Source of the DNA: a virus
IMG/VR virus record: IMGVR_UViG_3300036851_000098
Location: 1-64,000 of that record
DNA length: 64,000 bases
Direction: 5' to 3' (one strand)
This document shows, piece by piece, positions 4,429 through 44,431 of the stretch. The translations under genes and the position numbers were made by a program. Below the pieces are notes generated by a model that saw nothing but the letters and a program-made list of their open reading frames with translations, was not told the origin of the DNA and searched no databases. The stretch's first letter is position 1. Each line of letters starts with the position of its first letter.

Positions 4429-4460
4429 TCGCGGGCGAATCATCGCCTATAATGAGACCC
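4429..4460 (+). promoter_or_regulatory. Phage promoter motif copy 1
   Basis: TCGCG(4429)-N14-TATAAT(4448)-GAGACCC. Confidence 0.8.
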
Positions 4461-4478
4461 TTACATAAAGGAGAGTAA

Positions 4479-4766
4479 TTGTTTACCAAGAATCACATCG
4501 AAACTCAGCTCGACGCTGAGATCACATCTCTGCTCAGAAAGCTGAAAGAGACCACAAAGGACTCCGAAGACTACGGAAAGCTACTCGAGCGCCTATCCAA
4601 GTTGCATTCGCTCAAGATGGACGAACGTCCGCGAAAGCGAATCAACCCGGATACGGTGCTTGTAGTAGCTGCCAACATCTTCGGGATTCTGTGGCTCGCT
4701 CGCTATGAGCGCGAGAACGTCATCAAAAGCAGAAACGCTTTGAGTTTCGTGATGAAGCCTCGGTAA
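4479..4766 (+). CDS. Hypothetical cassette protein
   Basis: TTG start after AAGGAG; between promoter motif and terminator. Confidence 0.7.
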   Translation: MFTKNHIETQLDAEITSLLRKLKETTKDSEDYGKLLERLSKLHSLKMDERPRKRINPDTVLVVAANIFGILWLARYERENVIKSRNALSFVMKPR

Positions 4767-4795
4767 CCGTTAGTCCCTAAACAGGCTATCGAAAT

Positions 4796-4835
4796 AGAGG
4801 GGCTCGTGTGCAAAACACGGCCTCTCTTTTTTTTT
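4796..4835 (+). terminator. Intrinsic terminator
   Basis: AGAGGGGC...GCCTCTCT hairpin followed by a long T tract. Confidence 0.8.
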
Positions 4836-4958
4836 GAAAACTGAAAAATTCCCGGGGGGAAATTTCTGGATAATGTTCAGATATTGGTTCGTGTTTTAGA
4901 TAGATATTGGCTCGTACTCGCGTGATATGCCATTCCCATCGAACAGCACACTCTGGAT

Positions 4959-5138
4959 TTGATCCAGATTCTTAACGGCGGCGTTCGTCCGGAGATCGAA
5001 GAAGAGCACACCTGGTTCATCTTCGATGTCAACCTGCCGGAGACCACCGAGAACCACAAGATCGTTCCCCACGACGAGCTATACGAGAAGAGTGTCGGAA
5101 TCGTCGGACACGGCTACGTCATCCAAATGGTGAAGTAG
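4959..5138 (+). CDS. Small ORF or 5'-damaged gene
   Basis: Coding-like frame open from 4926 to TAG 5138, ending at a terminator; no RBS, first usable start is TTG 4959. Confidence 0.35.
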   Translation: MIQILNGGVRPEIEEEHTWFIFDVNLPETTENHKIVPHDELYEKSVGIVGHGYVIQMVK

Positions 5139-5144
5139 TCTAAG

Positions 5145-5171
5145 AGGAGAGCCTACACGGGCTTTCCTTTT
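5145..5171 (+). terminator. Terminator (TACAC loop family)
   Basis: AGGAGAGCC-TACACG-GGCTTTCCT-TTT. Confidence 0.8.
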
Positions 5172-5200
5172 CGCGTAAAAAACTTGTCATATAATAGAAC
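5171..5200 (+). promoter_or_regulatory. Phage promoter motif copy 2
   Basis: TCGCG(5171)-N14-TATAAT(5190)-AGAAC. Confidence 0.8.
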
Positions 5201-5218
5201 CACTACTAAGGAGTAATC

Positions 5219-5278
5219 ATGCTTCCCGTTTATATTCTTCTCGCCCTTCTTGTGGCGTCGTTGTTTATCTACAAGTAA
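5219..5278 (+). CDS. 19-aa hydrophobic peptide MLPVYILLALLVASLFIYK
   Basis: Own promoter, RBS TAAGGAG and terminator; below the ORF-track size cutoff. Confidence 0.65.
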   Translation: MLPVYILLALLVASLFIYK

Positions 5279-5300
5279 CACCCCCAGAGTAGTTCACTCG

Positions 5301-5330
5301 AAGGAGAGCCTACACCGGCTTTCCTTTTTT
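5301..5330 (+). terminator. Terminator (TACAC loop family)
   Basis: AAGGAGAGCC-TACACC-GGCTTTCCTT-TTTT. Confidence 0.8.
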
Positions 5331-5339
5331 CCCTGCAAT

Positions 5340-5368
5340 TCGCGTATTTTTCATGTTGTATAATGAAA
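5340..5368 (+). promoter_or_regulatory. Phage promoter motif copy 3
   Basis: TCGCG(5340)-N14-TATAAT(5359)-GAAA. Confidence 0.8.
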
Positions 5369-5458
5369 GAAGTAGCTCTAAGCAATACGTTAAGTCGGAT
5401 TCGTACCCGAGAAATATTACGGTAAAAGTCCGTCATAGAGCAATGCTTCTATTTTTTT
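5365..5458 (+). ncRNA. Putative small structured RNA A
   Basis: AGAAGTA/TGCTTCT and GCTCTA/TAGAGC close a multi-hairpin body; T7 tail; no RBS or ORF. Confidence 0.6.
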
Positions 5459-5480
5459 CTCAACAACCAAAGGAACAGCT

Positions 5481-5678
5481 ATGAGTAACATTGTTGGTCG
5501 AGTTGTGTACTACGAGGAGGATCCTTCAAATCCTGCCACAGGTTTTAATGCGGGAGCTTATGCTCCTATCGGTTCCAACTATTTCGAGGTCGTTGTGGCT
5601 ATGGCGATGAATCGTCCGTCGGCAACGATCTGCATCAAGCCTGTCAACACGATTCCTTCTTGGGTATGTGATTACTAG
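5481..5678 (+). CDS. Hypothetical protein
   Basis: RBS AAGGA, 65 aa. Confidence 0.6.
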   Translation: MSNIVGRVVYYEEDPSNPATGFNAGAYAPIGSNYFEVVVAMAMNRPSATICIKPVNTIPSWVCDY

Positions 5679-5680
5679 TT

Positions 5681-5712
5681 TCGCGGATAGTTCACTCCGT
5701 ATAACGAGACCA
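5681..5712 (+). promoter_or_regulatory. Phage promoter motif copy 4
   Basis: TCGCG(5681)-N14-TATAAC(5700)-GAGACC. Confidence 0.75.
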
Positions 5713-5729
5713 CTACCTAAAGGAGTGTA

Positions 5730-5969
5730 ATGTTCGAAATGTTCTACTGGAGTTCGATCATTTCAGCCCTGGAGAAGCTTCCTAAGGAAGCGATCATCTC
5801 TGTCGCCGGAGCCTATGCTGCTGCCGAGATCTACAAGCGTCACACCAATGCTCGTATTCGTCTCGCACAGATCGAAGCCGACGCGCAGGTGAAGATCGCT
5901 GAAGCGGAAAGCGAAACTCTACGTCTGAAGATCAAACTTCAAGAGATCACCGACACCGCCACAAGGTAG
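5730..5969 (+). CDS. Hypothetical cassette protein (coiled coil)
   Basis: RBS AAGGAG; flanked by promoter and terminator. Confidence 0.7.
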   Translation: MFEMFYWSSIISALEKLPKEAIISVAGAYAAAEIYKRHTNARIRLAQIEADAQVKIAEAESETLRLKIKLQEITDTATR

Positions 5970-5973
5970 TATC

Positions 5974-6003
5974 AAAAAGAGAATCCTCACGGGTTCTCTT
6001 TTT
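5974..6003 (+). terminator. Terminator (TCAC loop family)
   Basis: AAGAGAATCC-TCAC-GGGTTCTCTT-TTT. Confidence 0.8.
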
Positions 6004-6008
6004 CTTGT

Positions 6009-6040
6009 TCGCGAATTTTTCAGCTCATATAATGAGACTC
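6009..6040 (+). promoter_or_regulatory. Phage promoter motif copy 5
   Basis: TCGCG(6009)-N14-TATAAT(6028)-GAGACTC. Confidence 0.8.
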
Positions 6041-6065
6041 TACACCTCTATCAAAGGAGTACAGC

Positions 6066-6275
6066 ATGTCCGAGAACGAGACCCCTGAGGTCGTCGACTC
6101 GTCCACCCCGTCCAAGCTCGCCCGCGTCAAGCGCGCCGCCATTACCGTCGGAATCTTCGGAATCCCCGTCGTCGTGATGACCGCCGCCTCTTACGCTGGC
6201 TTCAAGACGAGCGTGAACAACGTCGAGACCGCTCGACTCACCCTCGAGGCCGCCAAGCTCGCCAACAAGGCGTAA
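6066..6275 (+). CDS. Hypothetical single-TM cassette protein
   Basis: RBS AAGGAG, high GC3, one hydrophobic helix. Confidence 0.7.
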   Translation: MSENETPEVVDSSTPSKLARVKRAAITVGIFGIPVVVMTAASYAGFKTSVNNVETARLTLEAAKLANKA

Positions 6276-6281
6276 TCCTCG

Positions 6282-6313
6282 AACGAGAGATCCTAACACG
6301 GTCTCTCGTTTTT
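6282..6313 (+). terminator. Terminator (CTAACAC loop family)
   Basis: AACGAGAGATC-CTAACAC-GGTCTCTCGTT-TTT. Confidence 0.8.
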
Positions 6314-6322
6314 CCCTGCAAT

Positions 6323-6354
6323 TCGCGTATTTTTCATGCATTGTAATGAGACCC
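6323..6354 (+). promoter_or_regulatory. Phage promoter motif copy 6
   Basis: TCGCG(6323)-N14-TGTAAT(6342)-GAGACCC; shares CCCTGCAATTCGCGTATTTTTCATG with copy 3. Confidence 0.8.
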
Positions 6355-6371
6355 TACTAAGGAGAATTACA

Positions 6372-6578
6372 ATGTTTAAGCCCATCCACGCCTTTCGTGC
6401 ATTCCACGCTCTCTGCCGTGAGTACGATCAGCAGGACGGAGTCCAAAGTTACATCAACTACAATCGTAACGCTTTCGCGTACGATCAGGAGATTCAACTC
6501 TATCTGGACCGTCGTCAGGCCGATCTCGACTCCGCTCGTAAGAGCAGCGATTCGCGATTCAATGCGGTGTTTGCATAA
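6372..6578 (+). CDS. Hypothetical cassette protein
   Basis: ATG after TAAGGAG; terminator follows. Confidence 0.65.
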   Translation: MFKPIHAFRAFHALCREYDQQDGVQSYINYNRNAFAYDQEIQLYLDRRQADLDSARKSSDSRFNAVFA

Positions 6579-6605
6579 CATCAGCTTTTTCCAGTCTTTT
6601 CTCGA

Positions 6606-6635
6606 AGAGAGAGCCTTCACAGGCTTTCTCTTTTT
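6606..6635 (+). terminator. Terminator (TTCAC loop family)
   Basis: AGAGAGAGCC-TTCACA-GGCTTTCTCT-TTTT. Confidence 0.8.
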
Positions 6636-6665
6636 CTGTGAGACCCCAAACTAAGGAGAGTAGTA

Positions 6666-6899
6666 ATGCAGAGTTCGCAACACCCACTCACCAACTTCTA
6701 CAACAAGGTTAAGACTCACAGTCCCATTTTGGGAGTCTTGATCAGTGAAGACGTGGTTCTGCTCGCCTTGGGCGCTCTGACTGACGAGCATGAGCCTGTC
6801 CAAGAATCTGTAGACCGGCTACGTGAGATGACCAACATGATGCCCGAGGACATTAGGATCATCCGAGAGGACGCTCTCGCGAAGCTCGGATATCTATGA
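6666..6899 (+). CDS. Hypothetical protein
   Basis: Leader GAGACCCCAAACTAAGGAG. Confidence 0.65.
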   Translation: MQSSQHPLTNFYNKVKTHSPILGVLISEDVVLLALGALTDEHEPVQESVDRLREMTNMMPEDIRIIREDALAKLGYL

Positions 6900-7399
6900 T
6901 CGACGGTCGACCGGACGGAGTAACCATGATTGCCAGTTGGTGCGTTCCTTTCGTTCTCCGCGAGTCTCATACATTGAACGTTCTTCAAAGCCGTCTACAC
7001 GGTTTAGACCACTGGTTTCGTGTCTGGCAGAACGGACAGATGTTGGCAAACATGGAAATCGACGTAGATCTTGAAGTCCTTGCCCTGTACGCGTTATTTC
7101 ACGACTCGATGCGTATGAACGAAGGTTCAGATCCGAGTCATGGAATGCGCGGCTTCAGGTTGTGGGAACGTGTCAACCAGCGCCAAGAAGTCGAAGACCT
7201 TCTCAGCGAACGACAGCGAGAGTTATTTTTCGAGGTATGTACTCAACATAGTGATGGGCTTCGAAGTACTGATCCAACTATCGCCGCTTGCTGGGATGCC
7301 GATCGACTGGATCTCCATCGCAAAGGGATCTGGCCGGATGCTCGTTTCATGAGCACCCAAGCAGGACTAAGTCTTGTCATGACTCGGATTACCTCATAA
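6896..7399 (+). CDS. HD-domain phosphohydrolase
   Basis: HGLDHW...ALFHDS...HG...CWDADRLDL HD motif set. Confidence 0.8.
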   Translation: MIDGRPDGVTMIASWCVPFVLRESHTLNVLQSRLHGLDHWFRVWQNGQMLANMEIDVDLEVLALYALFHDSMRMNEGSDPSHGMRGFRLWERVNQRQEVEDLLSERQRELFFEVCTQHSDGLRSTDPTIAACWDADRLDLHRKGIWPDARFMSTQAGLSLVMTRITS

Positions 7400-7421
7400 A
7401 CCCTATATTTGCAGGAGAAAC

Positions 7422-7595
7422 ATGAGCGAAGACCAAGAGAAGCATGTGGGCAAGATCAGGCATGATCGAAACAATCAGAAGGATTCGGCGATCGCGATGA
7501 AGAAGAAGGGTCACTCGAATGCAGTCATTGCTGCGATTCTTGGCATCTCAGAAAGCACCGTTCAAGAGGTGCTCAAGCCTAAGAAGGATAAGTAG
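7422..7595 (+). CDS. 57-aa HTH protein
   Basis: RBS CAGGAG; KGHSNAVIAAILGISESTVQEVLKP helix-turn-helix. Confidence 0.7.
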   Translation: MSEDQEKHVGKIRHDRNNQKDSAIAMKKKGHSNAVIAAILGISESTVQEVLKPKKDK

Positions 7596-7596
7596 T

Positions 7597-7626
7597 TCGC
7601 GAAAAATTCACGTCATAAAATGAGAA
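7597..7626 (+). promoter_or_regulatory. Phage promoter motif copy 7
   Basis: TCGCG(7597)-N14-TAAAAT(7616)-GAGAA. Confidence 0.75.
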
Positions 7627-7730
7627 GAACCCTATCTATGTGTTTATGATCTCACAGGCACTCATAAACTAAATAGCAAAGATAGGGGGACCATGATCCC
7701 ACAGGCACTCATGGTCTCTTCTTATTTTTT
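7622..7730 (+). ncRNA. Putative small RNA B with twin loops
   Basis: Repeats ATGATCYCACAGGCACTCAT at 7646 and 7693, each capping its own stem; closed by GAGAAGA/TCTTCTT; T tail. Confidence 0.7.
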
Positions 7731-7756
7731 CTGAGACCCCAAATTAGGAGGACGAA

Positions 7757-8077
7757 GTGATTCACGAGGAACGGATCCTACAGATTGATGTGGAGGTGAA
7801 AAAACTAAGAAGCAATATTCGTGAACTGTTGAAAGAACGGCGTAGTCTCGTACGATCGGAGTATACGGGATCAGCAAAAACCTGGAGAAACGAGATTATC
7901 ACAATTCTTGACTGCTATCCAGGAGCATCTCGACAGAACATCGTAGATGGACTAAGTTCTTATATTTCCTCAAAGATGCTTACAAACGTGCTTACCACGT
8001 TGCGGCGTCATGGGGAAATCGAGAATCGAGGAACAAAGAAAAATCCGCAGTGGTATATCAAAGAGACCCCAAACTAG
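7757..8077 (+). CDS. Coiled-coil plus winged-HTH protein
   Basis: LTNVLTTLRRHGEIENRG...WYI winged-helix pattern; RBS AGGAGG. Confidence 0.55.
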   Translation: MIHEERILQIDVEVKKLRSNIRELLKERRSLVRSEYTGSAKTWRNEIITILDCYPGASRQNIVDGLSSYISSKMLTNVLTTLRRHGEIENRGTKKNPQWYIKETPN

Positions 8078-8086
8078 GAGGACGTC

Positions 8087-8254
8087 ATGAAGATCAAACT
8101 CGATCCTCCGGTCGACGGAGTTGACGTCAACATCCACGTAGGACTTCCAACCCAAGATCTTGAGGATCTGATTGACAAAATCACCGATGCGGCCGTCACC
8201 ATTGTGGTGGCGGTCACTGTCGGCGGTATCCTCAAGCACATATTTACTAAGTAA
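8087..8254 (+). CDS. Small protein with C-terminal TM
   Basis: Leader GAGACCCCAAACTAGGAGG; 55 aa. Confidence 0.6.
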   Translation: MKIKLDPPVDGVDVNIHVGLPTQDLEDLIDKITDAAVTIVVAVTVGGILKHIFTK

Positions 8255-8264
8255 AGGAGAAGTC

Positions 8265-8450
8265 ATGGAGCGTAAGCGCGTCAAGCTGGCAGTGTACGTC
8301 GATCTCGATCCGGTTCCCGGAACGTTCCACTCGGCGGAATCTGCGCAGAATACAGTGCGGAGGCTGCTTAAGCAAAGCATCCCGCATTACAACCCTCTCG
8401 TGTCGATTGAGTCGTATGATACAGAGCAGCAGAAAGAGCTTCAATCATGA
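8265..8450 (+). CDS. Hypothetical protein
   Basis: ATG 8265 after AAGGAG. Confidence 0.6.
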   Translation: MERKRVKLAVYVDLDPVPGTFHSAESAQNTVRRLLKQSIPHYNPLVSIESYDTEQQKELQS

Positions 8451-8839
8451 AATTTCGTGGGGTTTTTCATCCGTCTTATAACCCGGAGATCCGTGGGTTT
8501 AATCAAGATGGCGGGGAATTTTACATCGGCTTCTTCACCGATGATGATAGTTCAGATGGAATGATCCAGATTAAACTTACTGTCTGGGCTCCAGATTCCC
8601 CTACTCACAATACCTTTGCTTCGCTACGTGTGTACCATGATGGCATCAAGGTTCTCCGTGAACTAGAAAAGCGTGGATTTCTCAAGTTGTTCGAAGAACT
8701 CAAGGCATCCACGTTTTACGACGTGGTGCAATGCTTCGTTTGGTGTAATATTCCCATTATGTATCACGGTGGGGATGAGTACAAGGAGATGACTCCGCGC
8801 AAGATTTACCAGTTACTGTATGAAGAGCAGATCACGTAA
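8447..8839 (+). CDS. Hypothetical protein
   Basis: ATGA coupling, 130 aa. Confidence 0.6.
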   Translation: MKFRGVFHPSYNPEIRGFNQDGGEFYIGFFTDDDSSDGMIQIKLTVWAPDSPTHNTFASLRVYHDGIKVLRELEKRGFLKLFEELKASTFYDVVQCFVWCNIPIMYHGGDEYKEMTPRKIYQLLYEEQIT

Positions 8840-9159
8840 TGCCCAAAGTACCCCAAAAGTCTTGGCGAGGACGCGAGTTTCCTCTTGACAAGCATCTGAA
8901 AGACATTCGCGCGGTACGAGTGAGCGCTATCGAAGAAGAGTTGGTGAATCGTGGCTTCTGGTACGTTCAAGTCAAAGGAGACAACGGAGAATTCAGAATT
9001 CGATGTCGGTGCGGAGACATCCGCCCATGGATTGAACATCACTTCGAACAACAGACTCTCTTAGATTTCACCATATTTCCATACAAATGGGATGTTGGTA
9101 GTAAGTTAGATGTAGTCAACATCTTCGTCAAGGCGAAGGTGCACAAACTCGCGACGTAA
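8839..9159 (+). CDS. Hypothetical protein
   Basis: TAATG coupling, 106 aa. Confidence 0.55.
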   Translation: MPKVPQKSWRGREFPLDKHLKDIRAVRVSAIEEELVNRGFWYVQVKGDNGEFRIRCRCGDIRPWIEHHFEQQTLLDFTIFPYKWDVGSKLDVVNIFVKAKVHKLAT

Positions 9160-9179
9160 ACATGCTGTATAATGAAAGG
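9149..9179 (+). promoter_or_regulatory. Phage promoter motif copy 8
   Basis: TCGCG(9149)-N14-TATAAT(9168)-GAAAGG. Confidence 0.8.
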
Positions 9180-9301
9180 TATCAACTCGATACTGTTGTG
9201 TAACGAACTCTGAGCGCAGAGTCCAGACCTTTCTTCCACGTCCCTTTACGGGGCGACTAGCCTTAACCGGCGAAAGCCCCGTTCACGGGCTCATATTTTT
9301 T
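9174..9301 (+). ncRNA. Putative small structured RNA C
   Basis: GAAAGGT/ACCTTTC closing stem, hairpins GTATC/GATAC and ACTCTG/CAGAGT, further hairpins and a T tail; no ORF. Confidence 0.6.
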
Positions 9302-9321
9302 CCAACTACAAGGAGATTGAA

Positions 9322-9480
9322 GTGCAGCAGAAGAGGGCCAAGCAGCTCTATCGGATTCCGATAGAGTTTTCGAACGGGATGACCCGCACCGTCAAGGTGA
9401 AGGCGAAGGATCGCGAGACCGCTGAGGCCCGCGCTTTGAAGTTCCACCCCAATGCCATCGGGGTGAAGCGAGGTGACTGA
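9322..9480 (+). CDS. Small basic hypothetical protein
   Basis: GTG after AAGGAG; 52 aa. Confidence 0.55.
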   Translation: MQQKRAKQLYRIPIEFSNGMTRTVKVKAKDRETAEARALKFHPNAIGVKRGD

Positions 9481-9733
9481 TTTTCGTAAGAAGCGTGAAT
9501 GGGGAGATGACGAGGAGCGAGTTTGCGACGGTTCGCTTATTTTGCTCACAGGTAAGTATATCCTTCCCGTGGACGAGTCTCCAACTCAAGTTCGGAACAT
9601 CATGGATACGTCCGACGAGAACGAGATGGTCACGTTTCACCACCACTACGATCCCGAAGTAGAGGTGTATGCTCGAAACTGCGAGATAATCGCAATAAAC
9701 GCTCGATGGACAAAGGTGGAAAATCGTGAATAG
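9473..9733 (+). CDS. Hypothetical protein
   Basis: Overlaps the upstream stop; 86 aa. Confidence 0.55.
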   Translation: MTDFRKKREWGDDEERVCDGSLILLTGKYILPVDESPTQVRNIMDTSDENEMVTFHHHYDPEVEVYARNCEIIAINARWTKVENRE

Positions 9734-9902
9734 GTTCCTGTACAGCGAAAACAGCACCTCCGGTCCGTACCCGGTCTATATTCCGGTGCGTCGGCGCAAG
9801 CGCTACGGGGTCTTCAAGTTCTTCTTCGACTGCCTTCTGGTGTTCATCACCGGAGGGCTCTGGCTCATCTGGATTTTTGTTCGTGAGATGAGAAGGCGGT
9901 AA
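9726..9902 (+). CDS. Small membrane protein
   Basis: FDCLLVFITGGLWLIWIFVREMRR, a type recalled from related actinophages. Confidence 0.6.
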   Translation: MNRFLYSENSTSGPYPVYIPVRRRKRYGVFKFFFDCLLVFITGGLWLIWIFVREMRRR

Positions 9903-10080
9903 TGGACTCCATCACTCAAGAAGCTCTTCAACATTTTGAGGCATCCCTAATTCGGGCATGCCTCGAAAAGATTCGTCCTGACGTAAAAGACGAAGACCCA
10001 ATGCTTCGAGAACTGTACGAAGACGCAATCAAGGCAGGACGTATCCGCGAACCTCTCGAGACTACGATGAAGGAAAGGTC

Positions 10081-10407
10081 TTGATGCTCAGTTCTGAAAC
10101 ATGTGAGTGTGGTCATACGCTGGGGAGTCATCCCCCACATCCTGATCATCCTTTCGCTTGGCCTTGTCGGAGCTGCCAATGTTCCGAGTACAAGGCTACG
10201 CCACAACGTATAATGGTCTTTGACTCCGTCGAGTGGGAGAAGGCTGGATACGATCGGCCAGAAGGAAACGATCGGTTCTATCACTCAGCGGAGATCCTCG
10301 AAGTAAGTGGTTTCGGGATTGAGCAAGTAGCAACTATCAAGTTCGAACATGACGGTCGTATCAGTCGTGGTCACTTTACCTCGGCTATGAAAGAGATCGA
10401 GTCATGA
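10081..10407 (+). CDS. Hypothetical protein with Cys/His zinc finger
   Basis: CECGH...H...CRSCQC. Confidence 0.55.
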   Translation: MMLSSETCECGHTLGSHPPHPDHPFAWPCRSCQCSEYKATPQRIMVFDSVEWEKAGYDRPEGNDRFYHSAEILEVSGFGIEQVATIKFEHDGRISRGHFTSAMKEIES

Positions 10408-10490: not shown

Positions 10491-10553
10491 TCGCGGCAAA
10501 ATCACGGCACTTAATAGGAGGGCCCAGAGTACGTTTCTGGGCCTTCTATTTTT
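10491..10553 (+). ncRNA. Promoter motif copy 9 plus ~40-nt single-hairpin RNA D
   Basis: TCGCG(10491)-N14-CTTAAT then AATAGGAGGGCCCAGA/TCTGGGCCTTCTATT-TTT. Confidence 0.5.
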
Positions 10554-10580: not shown

Positions 10581-11378
10581 GTGCAGCTTCTCAATGATGT
10601 ACGGCAGAAGGCTGGAGAGTTCGTCTCAGCCAATGCTGCCGTTCTACTTACTGGTGGTGGCGTGGTCGGTACGGTCGCCACCGGCCTGGTCGCCTGGAGA
10701 GGCGGCTACAAGACGGCCGAGAAGATCGGTAACGATAAGGTTCAAGATCTTGCAGACCAGCTTTCGGTTGACTCTGAAGCATATGCTTCTGCCGATCTGG
10801 ATAAGTGGGACAAAGCCAAGATCGCGATTCCTCAGGCTTTGCCTCCGATCGTCATCGGTGGTGCCACGATCGCCAGCATCATCATGGGCCACAAGGTGTC
10901 TGCCCAGAAGGCTGCGGCTTTGGCAGCTGCCTACGGCCTCGCTGAGCGTAACCTGTCGGAGTACAAGGCCAAGGTCGAGGAAAAACTCACTGGCCCGAAG
11001 AAGACTGCCATCGAGGACGAGATTGCGCAGGATCGAGTGACCAGAACATCAGGTCACGAGAACATTGTCATCGTGGAGGGTGAGGTTCTCTGTTTCGACG
11101 AGCCTACCGGAAGATATTTCCGAAGCACGATGGAGGACATCAAGACCGCGGTTAACTCGACAAACGCAGAGATCCTCAACCACGAGTTCGCAAATGCCAG
11201 CTTCTTCTACGAGGAGCTCGGCCTGCCCGCCACGACGTGGACAGACGAGGTCGGCTGGAACCACGATCAACTCCTGGATCTGAAGTATTCCACGGTGCTG
11301 ACACCGGACAACAAGCCGTGCATCTCGATCGACTTCAAGGTGCTACCCAAGGCGGAGTACGTCCCAAAGCACTACTAG
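10581..11378 (+). CDS. Conserved phage protein (DUF6353-like), paralog 1
   Basis: N-terminal GVVGTVATG..A hydrophobic segment, AALAAAY..E..L..Y, GRYF, FYEELGLP, VGW. Confidence 0.7.
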   Translation: MQLLNDVRQKAGEFVSANAAVLLTGGGVVGTVATGLVAWRGGYKTAEKIGNDKVQDLADQLSVDSEAYASADLDKWDKAKIAIPQALPPIVIGGATIASIIMGHKVSAQKAAALAAAYGLAERNLSEYKAKVEEKLTGPKKTAIEDEIAQDRVTRTSGHENIVIVEGEVLCFDEPTGRYFRSTMEDIKTAVNSTNAEILNHEFANASFFYEELGLPATTWTDEVGWNHDQLLDLKYSTVLTPDNKPCISIDFKVLPKAEYVPKHY

Positions 11379-14593: not shown

Positions 14594-14625
14594 TCGCGTA
14601 AAATTCACGCATAATAATGAGACCC
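14594..14625 (+). promoter_or_regulatory. Phage promoter motif copy 10
   Basis: TCGCG(14594)-N14-AATAAT-GAGACCC. Confidence 0.75.
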
Positions 14626-14651: not shown

Positions 14652-14942
14652 ATGCTTGACCGAATCGACTTCACGCCCCGTGGCGTTGCGAAGTTCGTAG
14701 TCAACGCCGCCGTCGCCGCGAAGGTTTCAGCAACCACTGTCAATGCTATCGACGAGAACACCAGGTACGACAAGGACAACTTCCTCGTCGGTACCACCGG
14801 TACGCTCGTCGGTGCATATGTCAGCGCCAAGCTGGAACCGCTCACGGACAAGGCCGTCGACCTGACCGCTGACTTCATCACCGCCCAGCGCGAGAAGTAC
14901 GAGACCAGAAGGTCTGAAAAGAACACTGCCGAAAAGGCTTAG
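14652..14942 (+). CDS. Hypothetical cassette protein
   Basis: ATG after AAGGAG; terminator follows. Confidence 0.7.
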   Translation: MLDRIDFTPRGVAKFVVNAAVAAKVSATTVNAIDENTRYDKDNFLVGTTGTLVGAYVSAKLEPLTDKAVDLTADFITAQREKYETRRSEKNTAEKA

Positions 14943-14950: not shown

Positions 14951-14980
14951 AAGGGAGGCCCTAACACAGCTTCTCTTTTT
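14951..14980 (+). terminator. Terminator (CTAACAC loop family)
   Basis: AAGGGAGGC-CCTAACACA-GCTTCTCTT-TTT. Confidence 0.75.
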
Positions 14981-15096
14981 CGCGTGAAAATCACTCTCTT
15001 TAATAGAAGAATAGATAATTTCCGCGCTTCCTTTGGAAGCAGTCTACTGGTGGCGGAATTAAAAAGACTATTACCAGCATCTGCTCTTCTCTTTTT
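14980..15096 (+). ncRNA. Promoter motif copy 11 plus small structured RNA E
   Basis: TCGCG(14980)-N14-TTTAAT; AGAAGA/TCTTCT closing stem, TTCCGC/GCGGAA, GCTTCC/GGAAGC, T tail. Confidence 0.6.
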
Positions 15097-15127
15097 CGCG
15101 TGAGAAACACGCCATCTAATGAGACCC
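15096..15127 (+). promoter_or_regulatory. Phage promoter motif copy 12
   Basis: TCGCG(15096)-N14-TCTAAT-GAGACCC. Confidence 0.75.
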
Positions 15128-15146: not shown

Positions 15147-15305
15147 ATGAACAAGTTTCTCGAAAACCTTCGTCGTGAGGCCGAGGAAAACCCGGTCGCA
15201 GCTCTCGCTGCAGCAGCAGCCCTGCTGACAGCGATCACCAGCTTCCGCAACTCCAACTCATGGCGCAAGGAGACGAATCGCCGCGTCAAGATGTCCAAGA
15301 AGTAG
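15147..15305 (+). CDS. 52-aa cassette protein
   Basis: RBS AAAGGA; between promoter and terminator. Confidence 0.65.
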   Translation: MNKFLENLRREAEENPVAALAAAAALLTAITSFRNSNSWRKETNRRVKMSKK

Positions 15306-31934: not shown

Positions 31935-32032
31935 TTTGCAGGGAGAAAAGGCGCCTTCGGCGCGGAAATCAACTGCCCTTGCATAAGACACACGGTTCAG
32001 ATACTGGGATATTTAAAAAGAAAGGAATCGCC

Positions 32033-32282: not shown

Positions 32283-32334
32283 TCGTGGGGTTTCACTGCG
32301 CATAATAGAAGATTTAACCGTCTTCTCTTTTTTT
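32283..32334 (+). promoter_or_regulatory. Degenerate promoter motif plus tiny hairpin/terminator
   Basis: TCGTG-N13-CATAAT-AGAAGA..TCTTCT-C-T7. Confidence 0.5.
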
Positions 32335-32379: not shown

Positions 32380-32691
32380 ATGAAGAAGGTAGATGCAGAG
32401 AAATTGGTCCGCCATCCCGTTCGCGTCCAGATTGTGGCGCTGCTGGCAGATCAGACAATGTCTCCGAAGGACCTCGCCGATCAGACTGGGGTCACTCTGG
32501 GGACCGTGGCATACCATGTCCGAACGATGGAGAAGTTCGGCGCCATTCGGTTGGCTAAGACAAGGCCCGTGCGTGGGGCGATCGAACATTTCTACACCTT
32601 GCGCACGCCCGCAAGAGAGCCGATCAAGACGGCTTTGACCAAGATGTCGAAGGAACGATCAGCGGCTGAAAACGCACTGACAATACTCTAG
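32380..32691 (+). CDS. ArsR-type winged HTH regulator
   Basis: HPVRVQIV.LL....SPKDLA...G..LG.VAYHVR.....IRL..T.PVRGAIEHFY. Confidence 0.8.
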   Translation: MKKVDAEKLVRHPVRVQIVALLADQTMSPKDLADQTGVTLGTVAYHVRTMEKFGAIRLAKTRPVRGAIEHFYTLRTPAREPIKTALTKMSKERSAAENALTIL

Positions 32692-33761: not shown

Positions 33762-33793
33762 TCGCGAAGTTTTCATGGGGTATAATGAGACCC
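33762..33793 (+). promoter_or_regulatory. Phage promoter motif
   Basis: TCGCG(33762)-N14-TATAAT(33781)-GAGACCC. Confidence 0.8.
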
Positions 33794-33810: not shown

Positions 33811-34020
33811 ATGTCCCAGCCTCCGCTCAATCTGCTTGCAGAAGTGCTTGTCGCCGAAGACGATTTGCTCAAAGCTCAGCGAAAGATCGCCCGCGTTCAG
33901 AAGACCCCCATTGGGAAACTTCCGATCGTTCGATCCAAGTTGAACAGTCGACAGATCAATCTCGCCAGCAAGCACATTCGCATCAAAGCCGCGAAGCAGT
34001 ACCTGAATTCCACCACTTAG
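33811..34020 (+). CDS. Basic cassette protein
   Basis: ATG after GAAAGGA; terminator follows. Confidence 0.65.
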   Translation: MSQPPLNLLAEVLVAEDDLLKAQRKIARVQKTPIGKLPIVRSKLNSRQINLASKHIRIKAAKQYLNSTT

Positions 34021-34028: not shown

Positions 34029-34086
34029 AAGAGAATCTTCACGGATTCTCTTTTTCGCGAGATATTCACGCAGCATAATGAGACCC
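34029..34086 (+). promoter_or_regulatory. Terminator fused to the next promoter motif
   Basis: AAGAGAATC-TTCACG-GATTCTCTT-TT|TCGCG(34055)-N14-CATAAT-GAGACCC. Confidence 0.8.
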
Positions 34087-34112: not shown

Positions 34113-34382
34113 ATGCCCAAGTTTGCCCTCGTTCCTGCATTCCTCGCCGGAGCCATCATCGCAGATGCGTACAGGTGTCACCGTGCCAAGAAGGCCATTC
34201 TCTGCATGGCAGATGAGATCAACGACGTCGTTCTCGAAACCGTCATCGATCCGCTCCACCAGGAAAACGCTCTTCTCGCTGCCACGGTCGACTACCTCGC
34301 GTCCAAGATCGCTGACTCCGACATGGAGCTGGACGAGTTCGACCTGATCATCATCAACGATCTCGCTCAGATGAAGCAGTAA
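34113..34382 (+). CDS. Hypothetical cassette protein
   Basis: RBS CAGGAG, high GC3. Confidence 0.65.
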   Translation: MPKFALVPAFLAGAIIADAYRCHRAKKAILCMADEINDVVLETVIDPLHQENALLAATVDYLASKIADSDMELDEFDLIIINDLAQMKQ

Positions 34383-38358: not shown

Positions 38359-38779
38359 TGGGAGAATTAGAAAGGAATGACGGCATACCACACAAACGGC
38401 CCATTTGTCCGCACTGTGGAGAATTAGCTCCTTACGGTGACGAGCGGTTGGCGTGGATAAGCTGGCACATCGATCATCCTATTCATGCTTGGTGGTGGAG
38501 ATGGAAGAACCGTAAGAAAAAGTAGAAAGGATTCGTAATAATGTTTATCATTTACTACTGGGCTTCACACCCCTGTGGCGGATGGTATCTAGAAGCAGCA
38601 CACTATTGGACCGAGAATGGGCGTGGTAAATACGCTCCAAGAAGGTGACATGCTCGGCTGTCATTACGATCGAAATACGGGAGCAATGATCTGTTGGTGG
38701 GAGGAGAACGGAAAGGTCGTTGCGGTATGGGTAGTCAATCGTAAACAGAGACGGAAAAATTAGAAAGGAGGTGACAGTA

Positions 38780-39997
38780 ATGGGAGAGATTCGAACCGGC
38801 GTTAAACTGGCTGAGCATCAGCAGATCGCTCTAGGTAAGTTGAAGGACGGCAATATCCTTTGGGGCGGCGTCGGTTCGGGTAAGAGTCGAGTTGGTATGG
38901 CGTACTATTGCACGACCGAACAAGACGAAGACTTGATCGTCATCACGACGGCCAAGAAGCGTGATTCTCTGGATTGGGAGACCGAGGCGGCACGATTCGG
39001 CGTGGGTAAGGAGAGAGACGCCACTCAGCACGGCACCATTACTGTCGACTCCTGGAACAACATCGAGAAATACATCGATGTAGAGGGCGCGTTCTTTATT
39101 TTCGACGAGCAACGACTGGTGGGAGCGGGTAAGTGGTCGAAGTCGTTTCTTAAGATCGCGAAGCGCAACCGATGGATCATGTTGTCAGCGACACCAGGAG
39201 ATACCTGGCTGGATTACATTCCCGTATTCGTGGCAAATGGGTTCTACCGAAATCGCACCGAATTCAAGCGCGAGCACGTGATCTACCGCCCATTCTCGAA
39301 GTATCCCGTAGTGGAGAGATATGTAGGAGTCCAGCGTCTGGTACGTCACCGTAATCAGATACTGGTGCACATGCCGTATGCAAAGGAGACGACTCGCCAC
39401 CCAGTTAACATCTGGTGTGAACATGATGAGGTCGCTCTGGCTCGAGTTTCACATGGACTGTGGAACATATTTGAAGAAAAGCCTATCCGAGACAAGGCTG
39501 AGCTTTTCCATGTGATGCGCAGGGTTGTAAACTCTGATCCATCCCGTCTAAGGGCTGTCCAAGAACTGCTGGACAAACACGACAGGCTGATCGTCTTCTA
39601 CAGTTTTGACTACGAGCTCGCAATCCTTCGAGAGCTATCTGAATCTTCAAAGCGGGTTTATGCCGAGTGGAACGGTCACAAGCATGAAGAGATCCCCACG
39701 ACGGACAAGTGGGTCTACGTGGTTCAGTATGTCGCAGGTGCAGAAGGATGGAATTGCGTCACGACAAATGCGGTGTGTTTCTACAGTCTGACATATTCGT
39801 ATAAAATGTGGGAACAAGCCCACGGGCGAATTGACAGGCTCGATACCGACTTCATTGATCTGTATTACTACGCGCTCCGGTCGAAGGCTACGATCGACTG
39901 GGCCATTTGGCGTTCTTTGAAGTCTAAGAAGTCTTTCCAGACCGAGCACTTCGACATGACAGATGCCGAGTTTGCGGATTTTTCCTATCAGGAGTAG
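38780..39997 (+). CDS. SF2 (SNF2-like) DNA helicase
   Basis: GGVGSGKS, FIFDE, LSATPG, AGAEGWN, QAHGRIDR. Confidence 0.85.
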   Translation: MGEIRTGVKLAEHQQIALGKLKDGNILWGGVGSGKSRVGMAYYCTTEQDEDLIVITTAKKRDSLDWETEAARFGVGKERDATQHGTITVDSWNNIEKYIDVEGAFFIFDEQRLVGAGKWSKSFLKIAKRNRWIMLSATPGDTWLDYIPVFVANGFYRNRTEFKREHVIYRPFSKYPVVERYVGVQRLVRHRNQILVHMPYAKETTRHPVNIWCEHDEVALARVSHGLWNIFEEKPIRDKAELFHVMRRVVNSDPSRLRAVQELLDKHDRLIVFYSFDYELAILRELSESSKRVYAEWNGHKHEEIPTTDKWVYVVQYVAGAEGWNCVTTNAVCFYSLTYSYKMWEQAHGRIDRLDTDFIDLYYYALRSKATIDWAIWRSLKSKKSFQTEHFDMTDAEFADFSYQE

Positions 39998-40195
39998 AAA
40001 GGTGGCCACGATTGAATAATTGTCTGTGTCTCTGCTCCGCTAACCACCCGGATCAACTCGGTGTCTGCACGGGCGACCCGACTCGAACGCTTCGGTTCAG
40101 CGACTTCCCAAAGGACTCACCTCTTCACGGACTAGATCATGTAGATATACACATGTGTGAATCGTGTTTTCTAAGAACAACAGCTAGGAGAAAAG

Positions 40196-40444
40196 ATGGA
40201 AGCTCTTAGAATCATCCCTGATTTGGAACGTCATGGTATTCGCGACGAGCCGTATAATGTCGTGGAATACGATAACGGTCCTATTATCATCGGTGGAATG
40301 TCCAAGGGCACCGAGAACGGAAAGCCGGTTGTCATGATCGCTATCGATACTGATGACGGAGATGTCATGGTCATTCAGACCACGTTGGCTTTATTCCTCA
40401 GTGCTGCCGATGCGCTCAAAGCTTACCATGGTGATCCCAGATAG
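40196..40444 (+). CDS. Hypothetical protein
   Basis: RBS AGGAG; GT.NGKP.VMI. Confidence 0.55.
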   Translation: MEALRIIPDLERHGIRDEPYNVVEYDNGPIIIGGMSKGTENGKPVVMIAIDTDDGDVMVIQTTLALFLSAADALKAYHGDPR

Positions 40445-40677
40445 ATGGAGAATCGTCGATGAGCGATGAAACCGAGAAGATGAGTCAAGAAGAGTTATTG
40501 CGTTGGAACCTGGTTCGAGCCGAGCAGCACGCGTCTCAAGCTTTAGACCTGATCTATGGAAACAAAGCAGGTGGGATCCGGGTTCCGCGCGGTTTCTGGT
40601 GGCGTAGAAGACTACTAGCTGCTCAGAATCATCTAATGACTCTGACAGTAAGAGAATTGAATAAAAAAGGGTGACAG

Positions 40678-40902
40678 ATGTCTGATCTCGTCTCATTTAC
40701 TATCGAAGTCGATATGGAGAAACGTTGGGTACCACACTTCCTGGGTATGTTACAGTCAATGGAACATCTAGGTCGTCTAGGTTTGTCACGAGCGCTTACG
40801 TTCTTCTCAGATGGAGACGGAGACTTCCATCCGCGATTCAAATGGAATATCGAAGCACAACCAATTCAGCCAGGTGAGGAATATTCATGGGATGCAGGAT
40901 GA
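40678..40902 (+). CDS. Conserved hypothetical phage protein
   Basis: M..RWVPHF..ML..ME.LG..G.SR...F.SDGDGDF.P.F. Confidence 0.6.
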   Translation: MSDLVSFTIEVDMEKRWVPHFLGMLQSMEHLGRLGLSRALTFFSDGDGDFHPRFKWNIEAQPIQPGEEYSWDAG

Positions 40903-41949
40903 AAGATAGCGGATACGAACAACTCGTCACCAACATACGAACTGAGGCCGATAACCTAAAGGCACATCAAGATGCATCCCCCCAGCAAGTGAGAGCTCTT
41001 CGGCAATTCGCTGATTTCATCGCAATGGGACGTTGGGGCAACAACAATCGTGAAACGGAGGTGAAAAATTGCTAGAATATCGCGCTATCGTGCGTTTCGA
41101 AGATCGCCATGACACTTGGTCTTTTTCCCCACACGTTACCAAGTGGAATCCAGATCGACAAGCAGCACTCATTTACATTGAGATTTACAGAGGTATTCCT
41201 TCATATAGGTCAGGTAAGATCGAAAAACGAGAAGTTGGGTTCCCAAAAGACGATGAGCTGTTCCCTAAGGAGGTGAAAGATGGCAGCAAAGCGACTGAAA
41301 ACGAAGATAACCCCCGATGATCAGCTAACTGAGTACTTGAAAGTTGCAGAGGAGGCCCTCATAGGGGCCGTAAAGCTCTTCTCAGAGCATAAAACGCTTA
41401 ATCGAAGGGTTGGGTACCTAACACGGCTCGTAAGGGCTCAGGAGGGCGTTACGGGCCTTCATAGGGAGGAATTGGTGCGTGCGCTGGCTACGAAAGGTAG
41501 AAAAGGGCGGAAAAAGGCTTAAAAGGGGGTCTAAATCGATGGAAGAGACCATCACAAACCTGGATTCGTACGTCAATGGCTATAAAGTCGTGTCCTCGGA
41601 TGAAAAGACGGTTACTTTGGAGGATGGGGTAACCGTTGAGAAGGCGAAATGTGAGTATGTAGGGCGTTTGTCCGAGTCTGGGGCAACATTGTATCACTGC
41701 GATGATCTTAGAGAAGAGGGCGATCAACTGTGATCAAGCTTATATTCCCTCCTGGGTTCCCCCATGATCTGGAAGTTCACATCCGGCCAGACTCTATTGA
41801 ATACTGGAGATGGGGCGGAAAGATCCTGGAGCTCACTCCCCCACAATACGGGATGATTCACAGGGCTATAGAAGAGAAGCTACGCTCTATAGAGGTGGAT
41901 CAGCTGTTTGTGCCGTATAAGCCGGAAAAACTCGAAAATCGGGTAGATT

Positions 41950-42410
41950 CAGATACTGGGATGCCCTAAAACAAGCTAAAAACGGCTTGCCAAGCTTTTT
42001 GCCAAGATTTTCTTTGGCAAGATTTTAATGCTGAATCACCTGCAAATAAGCGGTTTTGTGTTGCGAAAACGCTTGCCAAGAAATTTCGTAAAAAGTTTTT
42101 TAATATTTTACGACTTCAATATCTGATTATACCTATGGTATTCCTTATATATCTACGCGGGCGCGCGGAAAAATAGGGGGTTCCATACAAGGAATCAGAT
42201 ACTGGGATGCGTTTTTATAAAAACTTTTTGTCCTCAAAATCTTGGCAGACAAATTCGGCCTAAAAAGTCGCTGTTTGCGGAGAATCCCAGTATCTATTTG
42301 GTCTATTTGCCAAGATTTGCCAAGATTTAGGATAATGTGGACCGCGAAAACCCATGCTGTAGGGGTACTCTAATATCTGAAAACGGGTGCCAAATCGACA
42401 GATATTGACT
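41950..42410. repeat. Iteron-rich AT-rich intergenic region, putative replication origin
   Basis: TTGCCAAG at 41987, 41999, 42073, 42307, 42317 and inverted near 42014 and 42241; CAGATACTGGGATGC at 41950 and 42196, inverted core at 42284; T/A tracts. Confidence 0.6.
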
Positions 42411-43044
42411 GAAAGGAAAATTGATGGCTTCATTGGTGAACGCTGAGTTTAGATACTGGAGGACAGACACCAAGCGTCACAGTCGGGAAATCTACGCGCT
42501 TGTGTACAACGATCCGGCAAAGCCCTCGCCTCATGATCCATTGATCGGGACGATGGAGACTGCCGATTTGGCTGAGATCGTGGTGGAAGTACACAACAAC
42601 GCTATCCGGAAGTACGGAAAGCGGTATCTGAAGGTGCTGCAATCAGATGGATGAAGAGAGATTGGTTGAGATTCGTGGATTTGCGCTTGATCTTGTCGAA
42701 GAACTATTCGCGACTGGTAATTACAACCATCTCGATGGGTACGGCGGCGCCAGTCTCGTTATTGATCTCGAAGAAGCTGTGACGGCGCTTCATAAAAAAG
42801 GGTGGGCGATCGCTCGAGAGCTCGGGGATGGTTAGTTTTCCTATGCTGAATCATGTGTGGTATTACGTGATTCGGAAACCAGATGAAATGTTCAGGTTCA
42901 TCGATAGGAAGGCAGTCATAACATACTACCGACCATGGCATACTGTTGTCTATCTAGAAGGCGCCTTTGAGTCGGATGACAAAGAAGAGCTCATGCAAGA
43001 GGTGTATCGAGCAGCAGCTTCAAAACTCAACTGAAAGGATTCCT

Positions 43045-43341
43045 ATGATGGTTAGCGATTACACGTATGAGGCTTCACGCATGGCGAACTTCGGACGGGA
43101 CACCGCCAAGGCGCATTCTACATTTACTCGATCGACTGAGAAGTTGGCTGCTGAAATCAACGCCGCAATCGACAACGGCATCAAGCCTATCAAGGTTGCA
43201 CACGATGTCATGGGGCGGTGCTCATCAAGAGAGATGCAGATCGAACTTCTGTCATCTTTGATGGCATTGGCGCAGATGAACAAGATTCCGCAGTCGGTGG
43301 TGGACCCCTTCGAGGGAGGTATCCGTGTTAAACGAGTCTGA
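43045..43341 (+). CDS. Hypothetical protein
   Basis: ATG after GAAAGGA. Confidence 0.5.
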   Translation: MMVSDYTYEASRMANFGRDTAKAHSTFTRSTEKLAAEINAAIDNGIKPIKVAHDVMGRCSSREMQIELLSSLMALAQMNKIPQSVVDPFEGGIRVKRV

Positions 43342-43635
43342 TGTTGAATGTGGACGGAGACTTGTTTTAAATCTTCGGAACGCATGCCATGATGCCAATT
43401 CTCCGATTGTCCCAACGCCCATTGCTGAAGCAATCAGAGCGTTGGTAGTGTGGGCAGAGAAGGGAAAAGAAAATGAAAGAGAATGATAGATCTCAGGATA
43501 CGAAAGTGTTTCTTGGTGGACGAGCTTTGTGTTCTCCTATGTTTAGATGCTTTCCTCCTCAACCTACCATCTGTCTAATTTGTCAAGGAACTACGACTGA
43601 GTTTTGTTTGCTGGTAGAGAAATTGGAGAGAGCTG

Positions 43636-44139
43636 ATGATAGAGAATGATGGATGGAGGCCGGTGGAAGGATTTCCTGGTTATAGCATAAACGCCCTAGG
43701 CCAGATTGCAAGAGACTCTACTGGTCGGTTGCTGCGTCCAAGGTATAATCAGTATGGTGTCCCCTACGTCGGACTTATGCGAAATTGGCAACAGTGTATT
43801 CGTTCTCTACCCCGATTGGTGGCGTTGGCGTTTCTAGATAATCCATCGGATATTTTCGATACTCCGATTCAAATAGATGGGGATCCGGCTAACTGTCGAG
43901 CCGACAATCTGATGTGGCGTCCTCGGTGGTATGCGGTGCTTTACAAGAAGCAGTTTGAAAAGGAAGGTCGATATGAGAATCCTATCGATTCTCCTGTGCA
44001 TGCTGTGAACGAAGGAGAGCGTTTTTCAAACTCTTTGGAGGCAGCGTGCCGGTATGGTCTTCTAGAACGTGAGGTCGTGTTGTCTATTCTTAATAAGACA
44101 CCAGCATGGCCTACATATCAATTCTTCGAGATGCTGTAG
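43636..44139 (+). CDS. NUMOD4/HNH-derived protein
   Basis: WRPVEGFPGYSI...G.I......LL...RLVA.AF....IDGD..NC..DNL.W; HNH His apparently lost. Confidence 0.7.
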   Translation: MIENDGWRPVEGFPGYSINALGQIARDSTGRLLRPRYNQYGVPYVGLMRNWQQCIRSLPRLVALAFLDNPSDIFDTPIQIDGDPANCRADNLMWRPRWYAVLYKKQFEKEGRYENPIDSPVHAVNEGERFSNSLEAACRYGLLEREVVLSILNKTPAWPTYQFFEML

Positions 44140-44366
44140 GGGTCAAATGGAATCCGAGATTTTGGTAAACCTTAGTTTGCGTCTGCCTCAAGCGGATCGG
44201 CGAGCATTAGCTGACCATTTGGCCCCAGTTATCAAGGAGGCAATCATTGCTGGAGGAGACAGTGTAGTTGTTTCGTTGCAACCGTATGATCCAGACAAAG
44301 ACCCAGAAGGCGAGGAATAGAGCCAAATAGTGAGCAAATCACTCCTTATTTTTTTCAGATACTGGA

Positions 44367-44431
44367 TCGTGGAGAAATCGCGCCATATAATAGAAGGAGG
44401 GTACAATATCCCTTCTGCTTCTTTCTTTTTT
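44367..44431 (+). promoter_or_regulatory. Promoter motif variant plus hairpin ahead of the nuclease-RNAP operon
   Basis: TCGTG(44367)-N14-TATAAT(44386)-AGAAGG, then hairpin and T tract. Confidence 0.65.

Follow-up and report, generated by a model that had tools for sequence, protein, structure and literature searches.

A conserved intergenic element of about 35 bp as the candidate promoter of a two-barrel RNA polymerase in siphophages of two bacterial phyla

Which RNA polymerase reads the promoter-like element that is repeated between the genes of a soil siphophage, that of the host or one encoded by the phage itself? This question is raised by a 64,000-nucleotide (nt) stretch of DNA (positions 1 to 64,000 of IMG/VR record IMGVR_UViG_3300036851_000098, of soil-metagenome origin; hereafter, the window), which is part of a complete genome of 79,866 bp with all genes on the + strand. 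An earlier interpretation of the window, made from its letters alone (the sequence-only reading), had described about 16 copies of TCGCG-N14-YATAAT as a promoter that does not depend on sigma70 and had pointed to a dedicated polymerase. Here, we characterize this element in the window and in related phages. Our analysis indicates that the 16 sites are probably the dedicated promoter of a single-chain two-barrel RNA polymerase that the phage itself encodes and may carry in its virion, rather than promoters for a host sigma holoenzyme.

The motif is present at all 16 of the positions where it had been noted, as 15 strong sites and one variant, and every copy is intergenic and on the + strand (Table 1). 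The exact pattern TCGCG-N14-YATAAT matched 7 times in the window, where 0.06 matches were expected. With one mismatch allowed, there were 21 matches against 6.7 expected; 7 of these were additional to the earlier list, and they are mostly chance-like and include the only two matches on the − strand. The element is longer than first described, having an extra T 5' of TCGCG (box 1), an inner box, TCAYG (box 2), at spacer positions 7 to 11, and a conserved block downstream of the hexamer, which gives the consensus TTCGCG-N6-TCAYG-N3-TATAAT-GAGACCCTAC. Conservation is contiguous over about 35 positions, from box 1 through 10 nt past the hexamer, in 16 copies that share a single orientation. A position matrix scored 15 sites at 25 to 45 bits and the next best position on either strand of the complete genome at 9.6 bits; because the matrix was trained on the sites themselves, only this gap is informative. 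Beyond 44.4 kb, the complete genome holds no copy. The irregularities reported earlier also hold: the spacer is 14 nt except at 32283, where it is 13 nt and a base is missing between the two upstream boxes, and TCGTG replaces TCGCG at 32283 and 44367. The first base 3' of the hexamer is a purine at 16 of 16 sites.

The placement of the copies bears on whether the element is a promoter at all. It could instead mark the junctions of mobile gene cassettes or serve recombination, RNA processing, replication, or packaging, and the cassettes are indeed modular. The junction between terminator and box is identical in copies 3 and 6 (TTTTCCCTGCAAT and then TCGCG, at 5327-5344 and 6310-6327) and is found again at about 5099-5116 of a 59-kb relative; this threefold occurrence suggests that cassettes have been duplicated or exchanged as units. 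A signal of that kind fits poorly with the strict orientation of the motif with the genes and with its position just past terminators, many copies lying directly 3' of a hairpin and T run. The start codon follows the hexamer at a fixed distance of 24 to 33 nt in the cassettes with a small open reading frame (ORF), with a Shine-Dalgarno site between, and at 61 to 73 nt in the three copies that bear a hairpin (10491, 32283, and 44367). Also opposed to a nonpromoter role are the succession of an A/T hexamer and a purine start and the tRNA and tRNA-like genes that lie directly downstream of the motif. We thus regard such a role as very improbable.

If the element is a promoter, the host's primary sigma holoenzyme might use TATAAT as a −10 element that needs no −35 and start about 7 nt downstream, within GAGACCC. 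The upstream boxes, whose center lies about 23 bp before that start, would then be the operator of a conserved phage repressor or activator, and the phage polymerase would be used for other, later genes, like YonO of SPbeta. Actinobacterial sigmaA can act without a −35 element, the hexamer equals the sigma70/sigmaA consensus at 7 of the 16 sites and in nearly all actinophage copies, and some copies show partial palindromy in the two upstream boxes. Nevertheless, we consider this explanation unlikely, in part because of the sites themselves. In agreement with the sequence-only reading, no site has a TTGACA-like hexamer 16 to 18 nt upstream, and a generic sigma70 scan of the 4- to 16-kb region returned 8 sites, where 8.6 were expected, and never took the motif hexamer as the −10. 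The bases 5' of the hexamer are not, as a rule, the TGn of an extended −10. Hexamer positions 3 to 6 (TAAT) are nearly invariant (T6 in 15 of 16 sites), with positions 3 to 5 kept best, while A2 is found in 12; in the window, this profile, nnTAAT, runs opposite to the TAnnnT of sigma factors. An A at position 2 is needed for −10 recognition by the sigma70 family, and 4 of the 16 sites do without it.

The candidate reader is the 954-amino-acid (954-aa) product of the gene at 45275-48139. This protein matches PHROG 4291 (E = 0), and its GADFDGD loop (residues 530 to 536) is invariant in an alignment of 29 homologs. Matches to helix-turn-helix (HTH) sequences (resolvase, NarL, and sigma region 4) cover residues about 35 to 120 and 860 to 950. 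Since a sequence-profile search against PDB chains returned these HTH matches only and no polymerase core, a fold search was needed to see the core. Foldseek comparison of an AlphaFold model (predicted local distance difference test [pLDDT] score, 77.7) matched QDE-1 (E = 2e-8; probability, 1.0), plant RDR2, gp62 of P74-26 and gp64 of P23-45 (about 6e-5 to 8e-5), which are the nonvirion polymerases of these Thermus phages, P23-45 gp96, and, further down, the large subunits of cellular polymerases. By its DxDGD loop and modeled fold, the protein is a two-barrel RNA polymerase of the QDE-1/YonO/P23-45 branch.

The gene order of the window runs from the end of the tail module through an array of small ORFs, a fused primase-polymerase (19348), a helicase (38771), the PHROG 4291-type protein, lysis genes, and a collagen-like fiber to the large terminase (60995). 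When phage records were searched for DNA nearly identical to the early region, nothing useful emerged. By its primase-polymerase and its 954-aa protein, the phage belongs to the supercluster of Koert et al., which unites Arthrobacter AM/AU/AW, Gordonia DJ, Rhodococcus CC, Streptomyces BI, Microbacterium EL, Lactococcus 1706-like, and Faecalibacterium phages (bioRxiv 10.1101/842583). In that study, the "HTH protein" of the supercluster was already put forward as a polymerase resembling YonO and RNA-dependent RNA polymerases, and the authors count it among the few genes common to the whole actinophage-plus-Firmicutes group (10.1101/842583). It is the only HTH, that is, sequence-specific DNA-binding, protein among the genes they name; that no other conserved DNA-binding gene is named for the whole group argues against an operator for a conserved repressor or activator, and promoters are nowhere mentioned in their text (10.1101/842583).

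If this polymerase reads the motif, the two should occur together, and they do so in metagenomic contigs and in isolates alike. A scan of IMG/VR with the pattern alone found at least 84 stretches, and among those listed nearly all are true family members, recognizable by CA at spacer positions 8 and 9 and by GAGACCCC...GAAAGGA...ATG. A polymerase homolog is encoded in 13 of 15 motif-bearing contigs tested, including all 8 with a completeness of ≥90%; the remaining two are fragments (29% and 68% complete). Among cultured phages, the motif is found in Nightmare (Arthrobacter, 10 copies), Gravy (Gordonia, 8 exact copies), ReqiPepy6 (Rhodococcus, 14 exact copies), and DrGrey (Streptomyces, 6 exact copies), and in the last three it lies on the forward strand only, with reversed-pattern controls giving 0. 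The isolates share the consensus TCGCA-gaaaT-TACACG-nCC-TATAAT-GAGACCCCTAyGAAAGGA. Their last box 1 base is A (TCGCA), while that of the window lineage is G (TCGCG), and Nightmare uses both.

Searches of larger collections gave the same picture. A 48-nt motif query matched 147 of 50,697 phage records by BLAST (55 from Gordonia, 42 from Streptomyces, 42 from Arthrobacter, and 4 from Rhodococcus, with a few gut contigs and one Microbacterium phage); the polymerase is found in the same groups. Only two matches were doubtful (Arthrobacter phage Qui and Streptomyces phage SscP1EGY; E = 0.3). These two aside, the motif was not found among these records in other phages from the same host strains, which is not expected of a promoter that is simply read by the host. 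Among 185,579 bacterial and archaeal genomes, one per species, it was present in only 4 contigs of metagenome-assembled genomes, all of phage-like size. These contigs (4 to 51 kb) come from bins labeled Acidobacteria, Atopobium, Scandinavium, and Marmoricola; probably, they are phage sequences that were placed in bacterial bins, which makes the labels weak hints of a host at best.

The distant members of the supercluster allow the geometry of the element to be separated from its sequence. All groups keep a 5-nt box, CA at spacer positions 8 and 9, a 14-nt spacer, a hexamer, and purines, and the box sequences change along with polymerase divergence. In Lactococcus phage 1706, whose polymerase is 33% identical, the element reads yCRCA-N7-CA-N5-TATAGT-AGAAAGAAGG (9 to 11 copies), with AGAAAG directly past TATAGT. 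In Faecalibacterium phage FP_oengus (polymerase 41% identical), it reads RCGCG-N7-CA-N5-CTTTAT-GGAAGG, with 12 copies on the + strand and 0 on the − strand. (A frequent FP_oengus word, TGATATTT, was dropped as a motif candidate because most of its occurrences are intragenic or at start codons.) The hexamer is therefore TATAAT in the actinophages, TATAGT in 1706, and CTTTAT, which lacks A2, in FP_oengus. Promoters of T7, T3, and SP6 drift in sequence together with their polymerases, and by analogy, a geometry that is kept while the boxes drift is the pattern of such coevolving polymerase-promoter pairs. Host sigma factors from two phyla would account poorly for a geometry, and a conserved 10-nt downstream block, that persist across their phages. 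Together, the co-occurrence of motif and polymerase and the retention of geometry with a hexamer that is not of sigma type support the dedicated polymerase that the sequence-only reading had proposed.

That reading had also placed the transcription start next to TAAT rather than about 7 nt downstream, where sigma70 would put it. As a proxy for the start site, we folded each ORF-less cassette up to but excluding the first T run, with the 30 nt that precede the hexamer end included and free to pair, and recorded where the helix that abuts the T run (the closing helix) begins. In a first set of 17 cassettes from six phages, this helix began at offset 0 to +4 of the hexamer end in 10; when the set was widened to 33 nonredundant cassettes (about 22 contigs), 20 had it at −2 to +4, and none had it at +5 to +10. 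Such RNAs would be closed end to end by their terminator stem, which a transcript could form only by starting at, or next to, the first base past the hexamer. The initial sequence is GAGACC in ORF cassettes and GAGAAG, AGAAG, or AGAGAG in RNA cassettes, where it matches the pyrimidine strand 5' of the T run. In the window, four ORF-less structured RNAs of 87 to 122 nt follow copies 3, 7, 8, and 11, and three of them are closed end to end; relatives have similar cassettes, some of them tRNA-like.

Transfer RNA (tRNA) genes give a second view of the start. ARAGORN found no tRNA in the window and two tRNA or tRNA-like genes adjoining promoters in relatives, so the cases behind this argument are few. 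In FP_oengus, a tRNA-like gene (2935-3006 of the examined stretch) begins 2 nt past the hexamer; it has an odd anticodon loop, and the 3' strand of its acceptor enters the T tract. In ReqiPepy6, tRNA-Ala (41206-41280) begins 9 nt past the hexamer, and its extended acceptor helix also serves as the stem of a terminator. A start 7 nt downstream, as expected of the host holoenzyme, would omit bases needed by the 20 closing helices and by the tRNA-like gene. These features, as read from sequence, support a start adjacent to TAAT.

The phage also encodes a sigma-like protein of 248 aa (Table 1), which raises the question of whether it redirects the host core polymerase to the motif. Its sigma regions 2 and 4 score above Pfam thresholds, and the 14-nt spacing is short, unlike that of primary-sigma promoters. 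A homolog is nevertheless absent from Gravy, ReqiPepy6, DrGrey, Nightmare, 1706, and FP_oengus, all of which bear the motif, in a search whose positive control, the phage's own genome, gave E = 2e-166, and the gene lies in the late part of the genome. We therefore rejected it as the motif reader and find this explanation hardly credible. The gene sits between the polymerase and the lysis and structural genes, and its product could direct the host polymerase to late genes.

Several points weigh against a dedicated phage polymerase as the reader. The hexamer of the window and actinophage sites is a perfect sigma70/sigmaA −10, and TATAAT followed by GAGA resembles a −10 with its discriminator, so the host polymerase could fire there. 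The sites stand before early-looking genes, which the host polymerase normally reads, and in the four isolate genomes the phage polymerase gene comes second to last in the right arm, about 18 to 25 kb downstream of the last motif copy. The linkage of motif and polymerase is confounded by common descent, as the motif-bearing phages are all relatives, and the closing-helix signal is possibly in part compositional, since purine-rich starts pair with the pyrimidine-rich 3' strands typical of terminators here. The late genes have no motif copy, so another mode of transcription must also exist. For virion carriage, the one lead is a depositor's label on a single distant relative (1706 orf75), and in our literature search, neither mapped start sites nor biochemistry of the polymerase turned up for this group of phages. 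Lastly, two announcements of Gordonia DJ phages call the hexamer a sigma70 −10 (PMC9671010 and PMC10868162).

If the phage polymerase is the reader, as we think probable, the anatomy of its promoter may be sketched with the first purine past the hexamer as +1. Box 1 would lie at about −25 to −21 and box 2 at about −14 to −10, one helical turn away; the HTH modules at the two ends of the polymerase may bind these boxes as duplex DNA. The A/T hexamer nnTAAT (−6 to −1) would be the melted region, and the initial transcribed sequence from +1 would be purine rich (GAGACC or AGAAG). Each promoter would drive a short insulated cassette made up of a leader, a Shine-Dalgarno site with a small ORF or else a structured RNA, and an intrinsic terminator. 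In every relative, the sites head arrays of small genes, often for membrane proteins, that lie 3' of the tail module. Since these genes look early and the polymerase gene lies far downstream by the late module, virion carriage and injection of the enzyme are probable: a polymerase made from the right arm could not start the early cassettes and would have to arrive with the DNA. The ortholog in Lactococcus phage 1706, orf75 (EU081845; 2083-5172 of the examined stretch), was deposited as a "structural protein," as was the nearby orf71; its RefSeq name is now RNA-dependent RNA polymerase, and the ReqiPepy6 record repeats the "structural protein" label for its own ortholog.

Three copies (10491, 32283, and 44367) depart from this plan in that a terminator hairpin follows at once. 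Their transcripts should end after 20 to 40 nt unless this is prevented, which may amount to an attenuation or antitermination gate; speculatively, these copies may be regulated entry points to longer operons. The copy that had been noted ahead of the polymerase operon is one of them: 44367 does precede the endonuclease, exonuclease, and polymerase genes, as claimed. A caveat to the autoregulation that had been suggested for it is that this copy is a weak variant with an immediate hairpin and T run and has no equivalent in the four isolate genomes. A second intergenic repeat, TTCAGATACTGGGAT, occurs in the middle region on the + strand at 31997, 41949, 42195, and 44355, with A in place of the third G in the last copy; the copy at 44355 abuts the variant promoter at 44367, and that at 31997 lies 285 nt before the variant at 32283.

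Table 1. Copies of the motif and associated genes in the window
Feature	Position	Strand	Description
Copy 1	4429..4453	+	TCGCG-N14-TATAAT then GAGACCC; first unit past the tail/structural module; 95-aa ORF at 4479
Copy 2	5171..5195	+	TATAAT then AGAACC; right behind a hairpin and T run
Copy 3	5340..5364	+	ORF-less 87-nt RNA cassette (5365-5451), closed end to end before the T run
Copy 4	5681..5705	+	Hexamer TATAAC; 79-aa ORF at 5730
Copy 5	6009..6033	+	69-aa ORF at 6066
Copy 6	6323..6347	+	Hexamer TGTAAT; 68-aa ORF at 6372
Copy 7	7597..7621	+	Hexamer TAAAAT; ORF-less 103-nt RNA (7622-7724); first base paired with the final bases ahead of the T run
Copy 8	9149..9173	+	ORF-less structured RNA of about 122 nt (9174-9295)
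Copy 9	10491..10515	+	Hexamer CTTAAT; 13-bp hairpin (10517-10547) and T run (to 10552); 265-aa ORF at 10581
Copy 10	14594..14618	+	Hexamer AATAAT; 96-aa ORF at 14652
Copy 11	14980..15004	+	Hexamer TTTAAT; ORF-less 87-nt RNA (15005-15091), closed end to end; T run enters copy 12
Copy 12	15096..15120	+	Hexamer TCTAAT; 52-aa ORF at 15147
Copy 13 (variant)	32283..32306	+	TCGTG, CATAAT; 7-bp hairpin and T run (32307-32334); 103-aa HTH-type ORF at 32380
Copy 14	33762..33786	+	69-aa ORF at 33811
Copy 15	34055..34079	+	Hexamer CATAAT; 89-aa ORF at 34113
Copy 16 (variant)	44367..44391	+	TCGTG, inner box TCGCG; hairpin and T run at about 44395-44431
Genes 3' of copy 16	44453 (endonuclease), 44952 (exonuclease)	+	Followed by the polymerase gene
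Polymerase	45275..48139	+	954 aa, single-chain two-barrel, HTH at both ends, GADFDGD loop; proposed promoter reader
Sigma-like protein	51538-52284	+	248 aa, Sigma70_r2 and Sigma70_r4 above Pfam thresholds, extra C-terminal HTH

Parts of this picture are already in print, namely, the polymerase homology (Koert et al., 10.1101/842583) and the motif itself. For the Gordonia DJ phages Vardy and Conley, 5 copies of a 50-bp or 43-bp intergenic motif were announced (PMC9671010 and PMC10868162). This is the same element: it is intergenic, lies in the central small-gene region, contains TATAAT, and ends near the start codon, and Gordonia DJ phages carry 8 to 12 copies that align base for base with the window sites, with TCGCA where the window lineage has TCGCG. 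The announcements mention neither a polymerase homolog, the upstream boxes, other clusters, nor the question of the start site (PMC9671010 and PMC10868162). In the literature searched, we did not find the link between motif and polymerase, the cross-phylum geometry, or the start-site question. New here are the description of the TCGCG lineage, the tests of linkage, the forms of the element in Lactococcus and Faecalibacterium phages, the argument from closing helices, and the exclusion of the phage sigma.

Among known systems, the promoters of T7, T3, and SP6 resemble the element in their contiguous conservation and, if the anatomy proposed above holds, in an upstream part for duplex recognition, an A/T melting block before +1, and a purine-rich start. 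The enzymes differ, a right-hand T7 fold there and a two-barrel fold of QDE-1/YonO type here, and the promoter here is longer (about 35 bp) and is probably recognized via the fused HTH modules. From the −35-less sigma70/sigmaA promoters and the middle promoters of T4 (MotA box), which likewise have TATAAT and a conserved upstream box in place of a −35, the element differs in having no TG extension, nnTAAT rather than TAnnnT, a hexamer in FP_oengus that is not of sigma type, and a start that we infer at 0 to 2 nt past the hexamer versus 6 to 8 nt. If virion carriage holds, it would resemble the promoters of N4-like and crAss-like virion polymerases in being an early set read by an injected enzyme. 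The crAss enzyme is likewise a two-barrel polymerase. Among the differences, N4 promoters take the form of DNA hairpins, and the N4 and crAss enzymes are podophage proteins of giant size. Thermus phage P23-45 has two two-barrel polymerases, each tied to an early-gene motif, with starts mapped and polymerases located by chromatin immunoprecipitation sequencing (ChIP-seq); the motif is found only in relatives that encode the matching enzyme, and the virion enzyme reads the pre-early genes (10.1101/2022.12.01.518664). The element studied here likewise lies upstream of early-looking genes and is confined to genomes with the matching enzyme, as inferred in this case from sequence. Different in P23-45 are the fusion of the virion enzyme to the tape measure protein and the lack of the terminal HTH modules that are present here.

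We also put forward a broader proposal, which we hold to be plausible though short of probable. Siphophages across phyla, including hundreds of cultured Arthrobacter, Gordonia, Rhodococcus, Streptomyces, and Lactococcus phages, may inject an HTH-fused two-barrel polymerase that begins early transcription on its own duplex promoter of about 35 bp, independently of host sigma and right at the end of the A/T hexamer. The pairs TCGCR/TATAAT, yCRCA/TATAGT, and RCGCG/CTTTAT would then mark natural orthogonal transcription systems of one protein each.

If the phage polymerase does read these sites, the element would be the first promoter for an uncharacterized family of one-protein two-barrel polymerases, relatives of the cellular polymerase core. 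It would explain how early genes are expressed in hundreds of phages of the teaching collections, and many annotations as "HTH DNA-binding protein" would become a testable transcription system. An enzyme of <1,000 residues, paired with a compact duplex promoter that has natural specificity variants, would be attractive for studies of minimal promoter recognition, and the same pair would be attractive as an orthogonal expression tool in Actinobacteria and Firmicutes.

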